Shown here in pieces: positions 1,075-5,162 of a DNA stretch of 64,000 nt. The stretch is from assembly GCA_964510495.1 (NCBI GenBank), contig CAZECR010000001.1, positions 3,781 to 67,780 of the forward strand, given 5' to 3'. Source of the stretch: an uncultured Gammaproteobacteria bacterium. GTDB taxonomy: Bacteria; Patescibacteriota; Patescibacteriia; Magasanikbacterales; GWA2-37-8. The notes beneath the pieces were generated by a model. That model did no database searches. It was not told the DNA's origin and saw only the letters and a program-made list of their open reading frames with translations. Each line of letters starts with the position of its first letter. Positions within the stretch are counted from its first letter, which is position 1. The translations under genes and the position numbers were made by a program.

Positions 1075-2085
1075 ATGGAAATAGTGCTCGAAAACGATGC
1101 AAAGAACTGGAAAACTAACTCTTTTCCCCAAGCGTGGGAATGGGGTGACATTTTAATTACTGAAGGGAAGCTTGTAGAGCGCTTACGGGTTGTCGAAGGG
1201 GGTGTCACGCTCGCCCAGCTGCAGGTGGTATATAGTAGCCTGCCGTTTGGTTGGCAGTATGCTTTTTGCCCCAAAGGGCCAGTGTTCCCGGAAGGAACAA
1301 GGAACAAGCAACAAGGAACAAAAGTGCTTGAGGTGCTGGGTGCCTATTTGAAAAAAAAGAATTGTTTGTTTTTTAGGATAGAGCCGCAAGAAAGATCCGA
1401 GCTACAGGCTACAAGATACAAGCTGCAAACTTCGATTGACATTAATCCTCGCACTACTATAATTCTTGAGCTCGGCAAAACAGAAGAAAAACTGCTGGCT
1501 GCTATGCATCAAAAAACTCGGTATAATATTCGCTTGGCCGAAAAGAAAAATATACAAATAAGTTCAGAAAAAAACTACGAAACATTTATCGCTTTAATGA
1601 AAAAAACAGGGGAGCGCGACGGCTTTCGTTTGCATGAAGAAAAACATTATCGAGCGATTTTTGATTCGAAGCTTAGCTTGCAACTTACGGCGGTGTATGA
1701 AGAAAAAGATATTGCGACAGCAGTGTTTGTTGGTTCAGGAAATACTTTCACGTATCTCTATGGAGCATCTGATCACGAATATCGCTCGCTTATGGCGCCG
1801 TATTTACTCCAGTGGGAGGGGGTTAAACTTGGAAAAAAATTGGGGTATGAAAAATATGATTTTTTTGGGATTGCTCCGAGTTCGAAGGAACAAGGAACAA
1901 GGAACAAGGAACAATCGGATAATGATTATGCATATGATCCGAAGCATCAGTATGGTGGTGTCACTCGCTTCAAACTTGGTTTTGGGGGGAGTGTGCTTGA
2001 GCTGCCGGGTACATTTGACTTGATTCTTCAGCCGACGAAGTATAGGATATATCAGCTTCTGCGAAAGCTTCGCAGATTAATCTAA
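1075..2085 (+). CDS. FemAB-family peptidyl/aminoacyl transferase (peptidoglycan interpeptide bridge formation, FemX-like)
   Basis: 336 aa. The RBS GAGGA lies 6 nt upstream. Motifs YNIRLAEKK, ETFIALMKKTGERDGF, LYGASDHEYRSLMAPYLLQWEGVKLGKKLGYEKYDFFGI match the FemAB/FemX family consensus. Confidence 0.8.
   Translation: MEIVLENDAKNWKTNSFPQAWEWGDILITEGKLVERLRVVEGGVTLAQLQVVYSSLPFGWQYAFCPKGPVFPEGTRNKQQGTKVLEVLGAYLKKKNCLFFRIEPQERSELQATRYKLQTSIDINPRTTIILELGKTEEKLLAAMHQKTRYNIRLAEKKNIQISSEKNYETFIALMKKTGERDGFRLHEEKHYRAIFDSKLSLQLTAVYEEKDIATAVFVGSGNTFTYLYGASDHEYRSLMAPYLLQWEGVKLGKKLGYEKYDFFGIAPSSKEQGTRNKEQSDNDYAYDPKHQYGGVTRFKLGFGGSVLELPGTFDLILQPTKYRIYQLLRKLRRLI
1294..1321 (+). repeat. Heptanucleotide tandem repeat (GGAACAA)x4, one unit GCAACAA, inside the FemAB CDS
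   Basis: Read directly: ggaacaa ggaacaa gcaacaa ggaacaa. It encodes ...EGTRNKQQGTK... Confidence 0.9.
1887..1914 (+). repeat. Heptanucleotide tandem repeat (GGAACAA)x4, perfect, inside the same FemAB CDS
   Basis: Read directly: four perfect GGAACAA units, encoding ...KEQGTRNKEQ... It has the same unit and orientation as the 1294-1321 tract, 593 bp upstream. Confidence 0.9.
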
Positions 2086-2169
2086 AAAAATGTTCTCGTC
2101 GTTTAATGGATAGGACACTAGCCTCCGAAGCTGGTAATGCGCGTTCGATTCGCGCCGAGAACACGCGTA

Positions 2170-2193
2170 AGACAGGTCTAAGGCCTGTTTTTA
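2170..2193 (+). terminator. Weak intrinsic terminator after the FemAB gene
   Basis: Hairpin acagg-tctaagg-cctgt followed by tttttaattttt. Confidence 0.4.
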
Positions 2194-2279
2194 ATTTTTG
2201 TTTAAAAGGGTTGACAGATGAACGCAACTATGTCAGTATTTTTTTTACACAAAACCAGCAGAAGCTGGAAGGAGGAACC

Positions 2280-3164
2280 GTGAAACGTTTGTTGATGATG
2301 TTGACTGTGCTTTTCGCGCTCGGCGCTGTGCCTGCAGTGGCACAGACACCGCCGCCGGGTGCAGGGAGGTCGATCCTACTTCCCCCGAATGCGCCGACCA
2401 CTTCACCGGCTTGTCCGACGTGTACCGAGCAGGGGCGCACGGGCGTGCTCGAGGTGGGTAGGCGCTGGGAGGTACGCAGATCTGATTCGGCCAGAAAGGC
2501 GTATCGCGCCACATTCGGTCGGACCGTTTTCAACGATCCGACCCGGCCCGGGGCGTTAGTGCCGACAGCCCGGTGCAGTACCTGTGGGAACCTTCACCAG
2601 ATGCCCGGTGTCAAGGAGTTCAAAAAGGCACTGTCAGGTGATCAGCTTCGCGAACAGCAGCGTGTAGCCGCCGACAGGGCGGCAGAGGCAGGCGTAGGCC
2701 GTGATGGCCCTGCGTCTCAGGGCGGTCGCGTCCAAGCAGCCGACCCTCAACGAAACGCCTTCCGCCAGCGGGTTGCTGCAACGCGCGACCCGGCTCCGCC
2801 ACGCCTGCTTCTCGCTCCGCCCCCGGGTGGAGGTGGTGGTCAGGGTGGAAGCAGCAGCGGGCTCCTTGGTGGAGGCCCGAGCGCTGGCAGCGGAAACAAC
2901 CAGGGTAACGATGGCACGAGCCAGCGACGAGCCCTGGTTGCCTACCCCGGCTGCCTCGGCGATTTTGGAGGACCGGGTAGAAGATCCTGCACCGGCGCCG
3001 AAGCGCTGAGCCGGGCAGCGGCGCCGCTCACCGTTGGCGCTGCCGTGGTGGGTAGTCTTGCGACAGGTGGCACTGCACCCGCAGGCGCTCTTCTCCTGCG
3101 GGCGGCTGGCCAGCGCGCTGTCCAAGCCGGCGCCGTACTCGCCCCCGCGCTCGCCGGTCGCTAA
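2280..3164 (+). CDS. Secreted protein, paralog A, with a conserved C-terminal Cys-loop/Gly-Ala-rich module; GC-rich
   Basis: GTG start with RBS GGAGGAA. Signal peptide VKRLLMMLTVLFALGAVPAVAQ. The C-terminus YPGCLGDFGGPGRRSCTGAEALSRAAAPLTVGAAVV...LLRAAGQRAVQAG is shared with the 3480-4319 product. GC content is far above the flanks. Confidence 0.6.
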   Translation: MKRLLMMLTVLFALGAVPAVAQTPPPGAGRSILLPPNAPTTSPACPTCTEQGRTGVLEVGRRWEVRRSDSARKAYRATFGRTVFNDPTRPGALVPTARCSTCGNLHQMPGVKEFKKALSGDQLREQQRVAADRAAEAGVGRDGPASQGGRVQAADPQRNAFRQRVAATRDPAPPRLLLAPPPGGGGGQGGSSSGLLGGGPSAGSGNNQGNDGTSQRRALVAYPGCLGDFGGPGRRSCTGAEALSRAAAPLTVGAAVVGSLATGGTAPAGALLLRAAGQRAVQAGAVLAPALAGR

Positions 3165-3200
3165 CACGACCATCAGCAACTAACTTTTGTTCTTTACCAG

Positions 3201-3289
3201 CGGCCCTCTACAATTATCTCCCCAAGGTCGCCCTATTCTGTATTCAAGTGTCTTGAAACTAGAGTAGGGAGGGATTTGACTTTGGGGAG
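3201..3289. repeat. Conserved ~85-nt imperfect palindromic element, copy 1, downstream of paralog A
   Basis: ctccccaaggtcgccctattctgtattcaa...ttgaaactagagtagggagggatttgactttggggag. A second copy is at 4350-4437. Confidence 0.7.
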
Positions 3290-3335
3290 CGTAATGAGTT
3301 TATGGATTGCTTTGCTGAAAAAATACTACTTAATT

Positions 3336-3366
3336 AGCCCGGTATCTATCGGGCTTTTTATTTTTT
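3336..3366 (+). terminator. Intrinsic terminator
   Basis: agccc-ggtatctatc-gggct followed by ttttatttttt. Confidence 0.6.
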
Positions 3367-3479
3367 AAAATAGTGATTTAAGGTGCTTATAGTGTACATA
3401 GTGTTGACTTTTCTGTCTGGAGCTGCTAGCCTTGCTGCACAATTTTAACTCACTCGGTTCTGAGTGAGAGGTGGAAGAC

Positions 3480-4319
3480 ATGAAAAACATGTACATTGTT
3501 AGCGTGTTGCTGTTTTTGACGGCAATAGCCAACGCTCAGCCAAGGCCCAGGCTTGATCCAACCGCCGTTGATCGAGGTAGAATCAGGCTTGAGGGTCAAC
3601 GGCAGTTTCAGGCTGATACGGTAAAACAAGCAAGGAGGTTCGGCGAGTGGCAAGCGAAGATCGCCGATAAATATCCTGGCCAGCCTTTGCTCACACCGCG
3701 CGAATTACAGGTCGAGTCTCGTAAAGCGGCAAAACAGGATATTAGGGCACAAAAGTTACAGACTGCTAAGGCAAAGGGGTATGTGCCAGAGCTTTCGGAA
3801 ACGGATCAACTGGTGCGAGCTCTGGGTAAGATCCCTGAGGTCAGCGAGGTCTTTGATGAAGAGTTGTTGAGAGCAAAAGGTAAGCGCAAGCTTAAGACGA
3901 CTTTTCACCGGGACAGTCTCACACCTCTTCCTGTTCCTGCTGGCCGCCCTATCCTTCCACAGCTTGGTAGCTCGCCCCCTCCGTCGCGCCCTCTGGTGGC
4001 AACTCCTCTTCTGGGAGGACGTCCAGCGGTGGCTCCAAGTGCCCCCAACCTGGGTACCACGGATACTCGTCCTCGCGTGGGACCGTTCGTTTCCTACCCC
4101 AACTGCCTCGGCGACAGCGGCAATCCGCTCCGCAGATCCTGCGGCGCCGGTGAAGCGCTACGGAGGGCAGCAGCCCCGCTCACACTCGGTGCGGCTGTCG
4201 TGTCTGGTGTTGCTCCGGCAACAGCTGCCGGAGTTGGAACCGGAGTTCTGCTGCGAGCAGCTGGCCAGCGTGCTGCCCAAGCCGCACCCGCACTTGCTCC
4301 ACTGCTGGGAAGCCAGTAG
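3480..4319 (+). CDS. Secreted protein, paralog B, with the same C-terminal module; GC-rich
   Basis: RBS GAGGTGG. Signal peptide MKNMYIVSVLLFLTAIANAQ. The C-terminus YPNCLGDSGNPLRRSCGAGEALRRAAAPLTLGAAVV...LLRAAGQRAAQAA aligns with paralog A. Confidence 0.6.
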   Translation: MKNMYIVSVLLFLTAIANAQPRPRLDPTAVDRGRIRLEGQRQFQADTVKQARRFGEWQAKIADKYPGQPLLTPRELQVESRKAAKQDIRAQKLQTAKAKGYVPELSETDQLVRALGKIPEVSEVFDEELLRAKGKRKLKTTFHRDSLTPLPVPAGRPILPQLGSSPPPSRPLVATPLLGGRPAVAPSAPNLGTTDTRPRVGPFVSYPNCLGDSGNPLRRSCGAGEALRRAAAPLTLGAAVVSGVAPATAAGVGTGVLLRAAGQRAAQAAPALAPLLGSQ

Positions 4320-4349
4320 GCTCGGAAATAAATAGTCCTTGTCATTGGG

Positions 4350-4437
4350 TGGCCTACACTATTTATCTCCTCAAGGTCGCCCTATTCTGTATTCAATTTT
4401 TTTGAAGATAGAATAGGGAGGGACTGACTTTGAGGAG
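4350..4437. repeat. Conserved ~85-nt imperfect palindromic element, copy 2, downstream of paralog B
   Basis: ctcctcaaggtcgccctattctgtattcaa...gaagatagaatagggagggactgactttgaggag. The stem carries a compensatory change relative to copy 1 (ctccccaa/ttggggag versus ctcctcaa/ttgaggag). Confidence 0.7.
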
Positions 4438-4450
4438 AAAAAATAAAAAA

Positions 4451-4477
4451 CATCTCAGCAATCCGAGATGTTTTTTA
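4451..4477 (+). terminator. Intrinsic terminator
   Basis: catctc-agcaatcc-gagatg followed by tttttt. An A-tract lies upstream. Confidence 0.6.
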
Positions 4478-4548
4478 AAAGATTTTTATTATACTCGTCT
4501 TGACAGAAGATCTTTTTTAATCTAGTAGTACCCTATAGGAGGATGGAA

Positions 4549-5124
4549 ATGCAAAGCGAAGCTCAGGTTGACGCAGTAGTCACCACAAAGAAAACGTCTC
4601 AAAGACGTTTGCGAAAAGTAGAAAAACAAGGACAAGAATTTCGCAAACTATCGCGCCTTCCTCAAGGCGTCTTCTGTTCTGACTACCGGGGTCGCGAAGC
4701 GTGTTTTAAAGCGCTGCGTGATCAAACAAAGAAGCCTGCTGGCCTCGTGTACGTGGTTATGGGAACCGGTGCCGAGAATGCTTCGGTGGTGATCTGGAAT
4801 CACCGTGGTCTGCGATTGCTCGGTCAGTGGTCACTCAAAAGCAGCACGGCCAAAGGTGTGCTGTTCGAGGTGCTCCCTGCTTACACCCGGAACTGGAAGC
4901 TGGCTTGGATAAGCTACAACAAAGAGAAAGTTGTGAGTGGCTATTCAGTTGCTACAGCCGGTGGCATCAAGCGCTACTACCCGCTCAGCAGCGAGCAAAC
5001 TGGCGAAGTGGTGTCCGACAGCTGGATAGGGCTCAAGCCTGATAGAGCCCCCGGGTTCTGGGACGTCGAACGTGTGCTCCGGCCTTTTCGTCGCAGTTTT
5101 CCTCGCCCGCTCACCCCCGCCTAA
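4549..5124 (+). CDS. Hypothetical protein (GC-rich island)
   Basis: RBS TAGGAGG 6 nt upstream of ATG 4549. 191 aa with no recognisable motif. Composition matches the neighbouring GC-rich genes. Confidence 0.5.
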   Translation: MQSEAQVDAVVTTKKTSQRRLRKVEKQGQEFRKLSRLPQGVFCSDYRGREACFKALRDQTKKPAGLVYVVMGTGAENASVVIWNHRGLRLLGQWSLKSSTAKGVLFEVLPAYTRNWKLAWISYNKEKVVSGYSVATAGGIKRYYPLSSEQTGEVVSDSWIGLKPDRAPGFWDVERVLRPFRRSFPRPLTPA

Positions 5125-5162
5125 TTCACCCCCCCCGCCTTCCTTCCTTCTTCTCCTTTCCT

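Follow-up and report, generated by a model that had tools for sequence, protein, structure and literature searches.

Heptanucleotides are the most abundant class of long simple sequence repeats (SSRs) in many bacterial genomes and slippage has been proposed for them, according to the accounts of the survey given in two later papers (Mrazek 2007, via PMC4692102 and PMC4679880). In the same accounts, the repeats of coding regions mainly have units that are a multiple of three (Mrazek 2007, via PMC4679880 and PMC4692102). Other heptamers form dispersed families. Families of a single unit, with inverted pairs, are known from Xanthomonas and Nostoc (GGGAATC type) and as the short tandemly repeated repetitive (STRR) sequences of Calothrix (PMC4692102), and a TAACTGA family occurs in Beggiatoaceae, Cyanobacteria and Bacteroidetes (PMC4679880). 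These dispersed families are nearly all intergenic, and the mechanism of their spread is not known (PMC4692102, PMC4679880). Heptanucleotides can also act as switches within an open reading frame (ORF). The neuO gene of Escherichia coli K1 carries 3–53 units and is OFF in 65.6% of 64 genomes, with mixed tract lengths within single colonies (PMC13001214), and the hmw tracts of Haemophilus influenzae have 13–38 units (PMC2651432). Here we describe three heptanucleotide arrays inside femX, a predicted cell-wall gene, in a stretch of 64,000 nucleotides from an uncultured bacterium of the Patescibacteriota, order Magasanikbacterales (assembly GCA_964510495.1, contig CAZECR010000001.1, positions 3,781–67,780), called the window below. 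On balance, we read them as long-SSR arrays of STRR-like type that lie in tolerant loops of FemX, are generated by slippage and by copying between arrays, and are confined there by selection, rather than as a switch.

The gene and its arrays occupy the following positions of the window:

1075–2085, + strand: femX, FemX/FemAB-family aminoacyl-tRNA-dependent peptidoglycan bridge transferase, 336 amino acids, predicted from Pfam, PDB matches and an AlphaFold2 model
1292–1321, + strand: site-1 array, (AAGGAAC)x4.3, 30 nt, 91% matches (Tandem Repeats Finder)
1400–1428, + strand: site-2 array, AGCTACA x4.1, degenerate, 77% matches (Tandem Repeats Finder)
1885–1914, + strand: site-3 array, perfect (AAGGAAC)x4.3, 30 nt, 100% matches (Tandem Repeats Finder)

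An earlier interpretation made from the letters alone (the sequence-only reading) had described two identical (GGAACAA)4 tracts here. Their coordinates, their common + strand, the 593 bp between their starts and their location in one ORF are all correct, but the tracts are not identical. Positions 1887–1914 are a perfect (GGAACAA)4, whereas positions 1294–1321 read GGAACAA twice, then GCAACAA, then GGAACAA, with C at 1309 as the single mismatch; 27 of the 28 nucleotides are alike. Two A's on the 5' side of each tract extend both arrays to 30 nt, or 4.3 units. The degenerate AGCTACA array at 1400–1428 had been overlooked.

A lag scan of the 64-kb window found only three period-7 arrays of four copies, all of them coding and all in femX, and 0–2 arrays for each of the other periods from 4 to 12. 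With one mismatch allowed, (GGAACAA)2 is matched 6 times vs 0.05 expected. The single heptamer shows no excess in the rest of the window (17 matches in total, 7 of them inside the tracts, vs 11 expected), and the proposed search for further GGAACAA tracts thus gave no enrichment elsewhere in the window.

These arrays resemble the long SSRs of bacteria in having tandem 7-nt units, a period 7 that stands far above the neighboring periods, and slippage as a proposed origin. Two features of long SSR and STRR arrays are present, namely at least three head-to-tail 7-nt units with an excess of period 7, and recurrence of the unit at several sites of the genome on either strand. Two others, a predominantly intergenic location and a high copy number, are absent. 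Unlike the repeats of the long-SSR surveys, as far as these are summarized in the later papers, FemX-type heptamers lie in frame in conserved housekeeping genes at a near-fixed 4 1/3 units. They are like the STRR, GGGAATC and GGGGA(T/C)T arrays in forming genome-specific families of one unit at many sites on both strands, with some inverted pairs capable of forming stem-loops, and like the Xanthomonas and Nostoc arrays in occupying conserved positions with a sequence that varies between relatives. However, the STRR, Xanthomonas and Nostoc arrays are almost all intergenic, G-rich and G-quadruplex forming and number about 100 per genome, whereas the three in the window are A-rich and all coding. 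The TAACTGA family likewise comes in sets of 2–6 heptamers; unrelated lineages have its unit in common, with no transfer mechanism known, and now and then a set lies within an ORF in the stop-free orientation. In contrast to TAACTGA, which contains a stop in each of the three frames, is found mainly upstream of genes and has a suggested translational role, the window units are stop-free and translated. What is new here is the setting, namely in-frame arrays that recur at particular sites in housekeeping enzymes of Patescibacteria and share units within genomes. No paper joining "Candidate Phyla Radiation" with "heptanucleotide" was found in the full-text literature.

The assignment of ORF 1075–2085 to the FemX/FemAB family, already made in the sequence-only reading, holds for the predicted enzyme. 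The protein matches the Pfam family FemAB (PF02388, E=2.3e-43, 149 bits vs a cut-off of 24) and, by sequence, FemX and FemA entries in the PDB. An AlphaFold2 model computed with 30 homologs has a mean predicted local distance difference test score (pLDDT) of 91.6, and Foldseek places it on FemX 6snr and 1xf8 with template modeling (TM) scores of 0.75–0.78 and E around 1e-21. Relatives of this protein carry the names Candidatus Magasanikbacteria or Patescibacteria.

Alignment of 30 sequences places all three arrays in stretches of variable length and sequence. The site-1 array encodes EGTRNKQQGTK, residues 73–83, in a loop ahead of the helix at 78–94. The site-2 array encodes LQATRYKLQ, residues 109–117, and its 3' end is a β-strand running into the conserved IDINP motif. 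The site-3 array encodes KEQGTRNKEQ, residues 271–280; residues 273–283 have pLDDT <50 and are modeled as a disordered surface loop. Because 7 is not a multiple of 3, each of the three frames is used in turn along an array, giving a peptide with a 7-residue period (GTRNKEQ), and the GGAACAA arrays of sites 1 and 3 are read in different codon phases. The resulting window peptide is basic and hydrophilic. The site-1 stretch is 14–15 residues long in array-free homologs vs 21 in the window, and the 7 additional residues correspond to 3 units; the site-3 stretch has 10 residues in array-free homologs vs 19 in the window. The site-3 tract aligns to gaps in Staphylococcus aureus FemX and FemA. The expectation that the tracts are lineage-specific loop inserts is borne out by their absence from the S. 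aureus proteins and from many homologs.

Comparison at the DNA level with the three closest relatives, loci L081 (82% amino acid identity), L083 (72%) and L001 (69%), shows arrays at all three sites in each. The units are:

Site 1: window GGAACAA; L081 GGARCAA, point-mutated; L083 GAATCNN; L001 GGARCAA, point-mutated
Site 2: window AGCTACA; L081 AATATCY; L083 AGATTCA; L001 ACTATCC
Site 3: window GGAACAA; L081 GGAGCAA, degenerate (69% matches); L083 GAATCGT; L001 TCCAAAC

Array lengths in the window equal those of L081 at all sites and that of L001 at site 1; the remaining length differences are 9 nt or less. The G form of the unit stands at both site 1 and site 3 in L081 and the A form at both in the window, and L083 uses a single unit family at sites 1, 2 and 3, reverse-complemented at site 2. 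P0121, which is 96% identical to the L081 protein, is unchanged in length, with tract 3 altered by substitutions only, and substitutions are also the only differences between P0121 and P0002. Because the comparisons with L081, P0121 and, at site 1, L001 show equal lengths and point-mutated units, the tracts of this clade hold their length and evolve by point substitution, with the replacement of a whole array now and then. The sequence-only reading had named, as evidence that would refute it, homologs with the same insert encoded by non-repetitive DNA. Inserts of the same length are indeed found (L081, P0121 and L001 at site 1), encoded by degenerate repeats; together with the lack of GGAACAA enrichment in the window, this largely goes against that reading on its own terms.

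To place the window among its relatives, 80 genomic loci with FemX homologs of 33–69% amino acid identity, mostly from Patescibacteria, were surveyed with Tandem Repeats Finder. Over 81 loci, period 7 outweighs every other tandem-repeat period. It accounts for 149 of the 547 repeats reported, whereas period 6 has 31 and period 8 has 49. With thresholds of 4 copies and 80% matches, the femX genes (76.6 kb) contain 30 arrays and the flanks (479 kb) 23; raising the match threshold to 90% leaves 17 and 4. This makes femX genes 8–27 times richer in arrays than their flanks, and periods other than 7 are near zero at 4 copies and 80% matches. Most strong arrays at these loci lie inside ORFs. Within femX, they cluster at relative nucleotides 150–375 and 700–830, which correspond to the three loops that contain the window arrays. 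Among the genes with arrays (33), self-identity at lag 7 is 0.41, 0.50 and 0.35 at sites 1, 2 and 3 vs 0.27 in the rest of the gene, while 46 of 79 homologs have neither an array nor a lag-7 signal at any site.

Copy number in the 37 coding arrays ranges from 3.4 to 5.3 with a median of 4.4, except for one array of 7.4 units, which lies three units above the others and fits in-frame steps of 3 units. The unit itself differs by lineage (GGAACAA, AAGTCGA, AAATCCG, AATATCC, CTACAAG, AGATTCA, GAGTTAC and others), and the encoded peptides differ as widely, from KSKVESR to NIQYPIS. We also considered metagenome contigs of the Joint Genome Institute, where (GGAACAA)3 has at least 120 matches of 3–10 units on contigs with GC contents of 0.32–0.71. 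None of the listed matches lies within a femX gene, and as evidence on this locus they are uninformative, the unit being a common microsatellite in many organisms.

Arrays within a gene are related to one another. Counting units as shared when they differ by at most 1 mismatch in any rotation and on either strand, 9 of 29 within-gene pairs share a unit vs 5.8% between loci (p=2.4e-5), and four of the nine are inverted site-1/site-2 pairs (L046, L049, L057 and L083). The arrays of one gene are, to judge from these units, clearly not independent. In the window, the sharing is between sites 1 and 3, and shared units also occur in L027, L083, L046 and L038; for the window's own genome, recurrence was judged on the 64 kb. 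The inverted copy in L049 would be expected to carry TGA in every unit, but the unit in which TGA would fall in frame reads TGT, which looks like copying followed by selection.

Units also recur beyond femX. In L046, four copies of the unit AAATCCG lie within 1.3 kb: one upstream of nusB (2520–2551), a short inverted one shortly before the rpmF stop (2617–2632), one upstream of rpmF (2866–2897) and one in frame at femX site 3 (3783–3816). The copy upstream of nusB and the short inverted copy could pair as a terminator-like hairpin. L038 has the same or near-identical units in its TsaD, FemX and Mur ligase genes. Transketolase carries an array in the same linker in L002 and L016, Mur ligase genes carry arrays in L038, L058 and L068, and further in-frame arrays lie in TsaD, U32 peptidases and an RlmI-like methyltransferase, with others in intergenic DNA. 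The in-frame arrays in housekeeping genes other than femX, each of 3.4–4.7 units, are at these positions of their loci:

L002, 6410–6441
L016, 5311–5341
L038, 1792–1815 and 4876–4907
L058, 4777–4809
L068, 5934–5963
L044, 1328–1360
L083, 1293–1325

A locus with an array in femX is far likelier to have one in its flanks (odds ratio 9.7, p=2e-4); array proneness is a property of the genome. Across genomes, 17 pairs of units are shared, vs a mean of 6.8 and a maximum of 24 expected from composition. A small vocabulary of units common to these genomes was rejected on this basis, the excess being merely modest.

Site 2 offers a possible starting point for array growth. The 3' end of nearly every site-2 array encodes a β-strand motif, aromatic-K-(I/L)-Q, ahead of IDINP, and in the window this strand spans residues 116–120. 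RFKIQ, encoded as AGATTCAAGATTCAA, already contains 2.1 heptamer copies, as does SYKLQ, encoded as AGCTACAAGCTACAA. Because both codings already hold these copies, the native sequence is predicted to be one that can seed an array growing upstream into the loop. Perfect or near-perfect (CTACAAG)4–5 arrays occupy site 2 in L002, L011 and L021, whose mutual identity is just 47–57%, and the window holds a degenerate form. Seeding helps to account for this recurrence of (CTACAAG)4–5 at site 2, but it does not account for the units that different sites and genes have in common.

Taken together, the arrays most likely act as loop filler, and the reading frame and constraints on loop size would keep their length at 4 1/3 units. 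In the mechanism we favor, arrays would be produced at the DNA level by two routes, replication slippage on short native seeds and copying or template switching between arrays. Selection would then keep them in tolerant loops, without an in-frame stop and at a frame-preserving length. Steps of 3 units (21 nt, 7 amino acids) would lead to the stable 4 1/3 units, and the arrays would later decay by point substitution.

Several observations weigh against this account. Arrays outside long ORFs also center on about 4.3 units (n=15), and frame preservation may not be the sole determinant of array length. Loop tolerance alone may be insufficient to explain the 8–27-fold enrichment in femX. Identical, perfect (CTACAAG)4–5 and (AATATCC)4 arrays stand at site 2 in lineages of 47–57% identity with differing junctions, which could reflect selection on the repeat or transfer of arrays. 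Tract 3 of the window is perfect, and is thus either young or still being homogenized. Lastly, L027, described below, indicates that single-unit slips happen and can reach the consensus of a population.

Some of these observations would be expected from a dedicated copy-and-paste activity, in which either a very small, non-autonomous mobile repeat or some templated process of repair or insertion writes arrays of about 30 nt with genome-specific units in either orientation, and selection merely filters where they survive. Consistent with such an activity are the reappearance of a unit, in both orientations, at multiple sites within a gene or genome, the units common to TsaD, FemX and Mur ligase in L038, the preferred length of about 30–32 nt even outside long ORFs, the identical arrays with different junctions in distant lineages and the genome-specific proneness. 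The dispersed TAACTGA and STRR families, also without a known mechanism, are analogous. However, the arrays show neither terminal repeats nor target-site duplications, no gene was seen to accompany them, reuse of units between loci is just modestly above expectation (17 pairs; mean 6.8, maximum 24), native seeds cover part of the recurrence at site 2, the window has just three arrays in 64 kb, and gene conversion and template switching are sufficient in principle. We consider a dedicated activity rather unlikely as the source of the arrays. The broader proposition, that Patescibacteria harbor an active process that writes or copies heptamer arrays of about 30 nt with genome-specific units in either orientation, is tentative, though we would not call it far-fetched. 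If true, arrays would repeatedly colonize tolerant loops, above all in FemX but also in transketolase, Mur ligase and TsaD, as well as intergenic DNA, and would form a minimal "protein-colonizing" class of repeats rather than passive microsatellites.

The sequence-only reading had also offered a small insertion that targeted the same motif twice. A repeated event fits broadly, since units are shared and the data point to copying from site to site, but the termini and target duplications of a mobile element do not appear. As a miniature inverted-repeat transposable element or insertion sequence the arrays lack termini and flanking duplications, and their junctions differ between lineages. Readings as such elements, as a diversity-generating retroelement or as CRISPR-like (clustered regularly interspaced short palindromic) repeats were set aside, no defining feature of any of them being present in the sequence.

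The favored reading of the arrays as loop filler departs from the proposal that femX is a phase-variable contingency locus of classic architecture. A true contingency locus would switch FemX reversibly off and on by heptamer slippage in tract 1 or 3, varying the peptidoglycan cross-bridge, for example for escape from hydrolases or phage lysins. The unit length of 7 is not divisible by 3, the tracts are within ORF 1075–2085, tract 3 is perfect, femX is strongly enriched in arrays over its flanks, and in-ORF heptanucleotide switches exist, neuO among them (PMC13001214). As in neuO, a 7-nt unit in coding sequence allows full-length translation at every third copy number only. It had been predicted that a change of one unit would frameshift the gene, and L027 carries exactly such a frameshift: at 3165–3189, the N- and C-terminal parts of its femX are in different frames, with the break inside the site-1 array (AAGTCGA x3.6), and one added unit restores the frame.

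Beyond the non-triplet unit in the window and the L027 frameshift, two other hallmarks of a contingency locus are missing. Hypermutable length and perfection are not seen, with 4.3 units, a mismatch in tract 1 and 77% matches at site 2; nor are polymorphic lengths or frequent out-of-frame alleles. The window arrays have about 4 units, whereas 13–53 are given for known heptanucleotide switches (neuO 3–53, hmw 13–38), and their lengths are stable across relatives: L081 and P0121 at all sites and L001 at site 1 keep the length through degenerate repeats, with decay by substitution. Clusters of proteins at 90% identity, of 1–2 members each, contain no length variants. Array-linked frameshifts affect 1 of 78 assessable femX genes (L027), whereas 65.6% of neuO genes are OFF. 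Tract 1 and the site-2 array are already imperfect.

The same arrays also lie in transketolase, Mur ligase and TsaD, where an OFF state would harm; these genes are normally indispensable. A search for truncated OFF-state ORFs with an N-terminal profile retrieved just 6 candidates and gave a single hit, P0122, which is not broken at an array. We therefore regard a contingency locus as unlikely. The arrays make the gene somewhat more frameshift-prone, but an operating ON/OFF switch is weakly supported. The further suggestion, that the two tracts serve as direct repeats for deleting the 593 bp between them, fails as a designed event, since 593 is not a multiple of 3 and the deletion would remove the catalytic core; no such deletion occurs among the surveyed homologs.

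Three candidate OFF alleles were rejected. L030 and L032 have runs of N at site 1, which makes them uninformative, and they were left out of the frameshift count. The run in L032 lies at about 643–652, at site 1, and that in L030 (about 100 N's) at about 1727–1826, upstream of and into site 1; both may be scaffold gaps caused by the repeat or masking in the collection. In P0122 (L209, 1952–2110 and downstream), femX is cut at nucleotide 149 by unrelated DNA and not at an array. The L209 contig is 99.95% identical to L083 up to that nucleotide and then continues into unrelated, GC-richer DNA, so the junction is either foreign DNA inserted in femX or a chimeric assembly.

A function for the arrays themselves, as protein binding sites (heptad-repeat operators or centromere-like sites), as mRNA stems or as peptide loops that bind tRNA or lipid II, seems quite improbable. 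The inverted site-1/site-2 arrays of L046, L057, L049 and L083 would form mRNA stems of about 30 bp, L058 and L036 have inverted intergenic pairs 3' of femX, perfect arrays persist in divergent lineages, and the basic, hydrophilic character of the window peptide would suit such a role. However, the window arrays form no stem because they are direct repeats, the units and hence the peptides vary widely between lineages (KSKVESR to NIQYPIS), and 46 of 79 homologs do without any array or lag-7 signal. Tract 3 is disordered and in a non-conserved stretch, and no Rfam family covers the region, the only Rfam match at the locus being a neighboring tRNA. Chance similarity or an assembly artefact, for which only the small size of the tracts speaks, is almost certainly not the explanation, given 6 matches vs 0.05 expected, the recovery of the same arrays in independent assemblies from different samples (L083–L088) and their occurrence in dozens of independent metagenome-assembled genomes.

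Arrays, often as inverted pairs, also lie directly 3' of the femX stop in L058 (4035–4105), L036 (3949–4018), L034 (3972–4030) and L043 (3195–3227), and L043 and L058 have an identical 33-nt array just 3' of this stop. The gene order around femX is nusB–rpmF–femX–(variable)–gyrA and is kept in L081 and L083. In the window, a tRNA-Arg gene (anticodon CCG, 2092–2164; ARAGORN and Rfam) begins 7 nt past the femX stop. Because the ORF listed at 2106–3164 overlaps this tRNA, its true start is probably GTG at 2280, ahead of a stretch resembling a signal peptide. The interval from the tRNA to gyrA (2165–5130) has a GC content of 51–56% vs about 44% in most of the window and contains three ORFs, none with a Pfam match. 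Two of them, 2280–3164 and 3480–4319, are secreted-looking and rich in Gly, Ala and Pro, and have a common C-terminal segment of about 50 residues with 56–62% identity. In L081 and L083, the interval measures 0.7–1 kb and has one or two small genes. The window interval may be an island integrated beside the tRNA. A second GC-rich stretch lies at about 44–48 kb.

These findings remove a tempting but weakly supported annotation, that of a phase-variable cell-wall enzyme in an uncultivated episymbiont lineage. Heptanucleotide arrays are a recognized but unexplained class of bacterial repeats that has been described almost only from intergenic DNA. In Patescibacteria, heptamer arrays repeatedly give rise to in-frame loop insertions in conserved enzymes; their units are shared within genomes and turn over at fixed sites. 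For annotators and phylogeneticists there is a caution, as such loop segments are repeats at the DNA level and not homologous residues. The loci also offer a concrete way into the origin and spread of the arrays, whether by slippage, template switching or a dedicated activity, and into the growth of protein loops.

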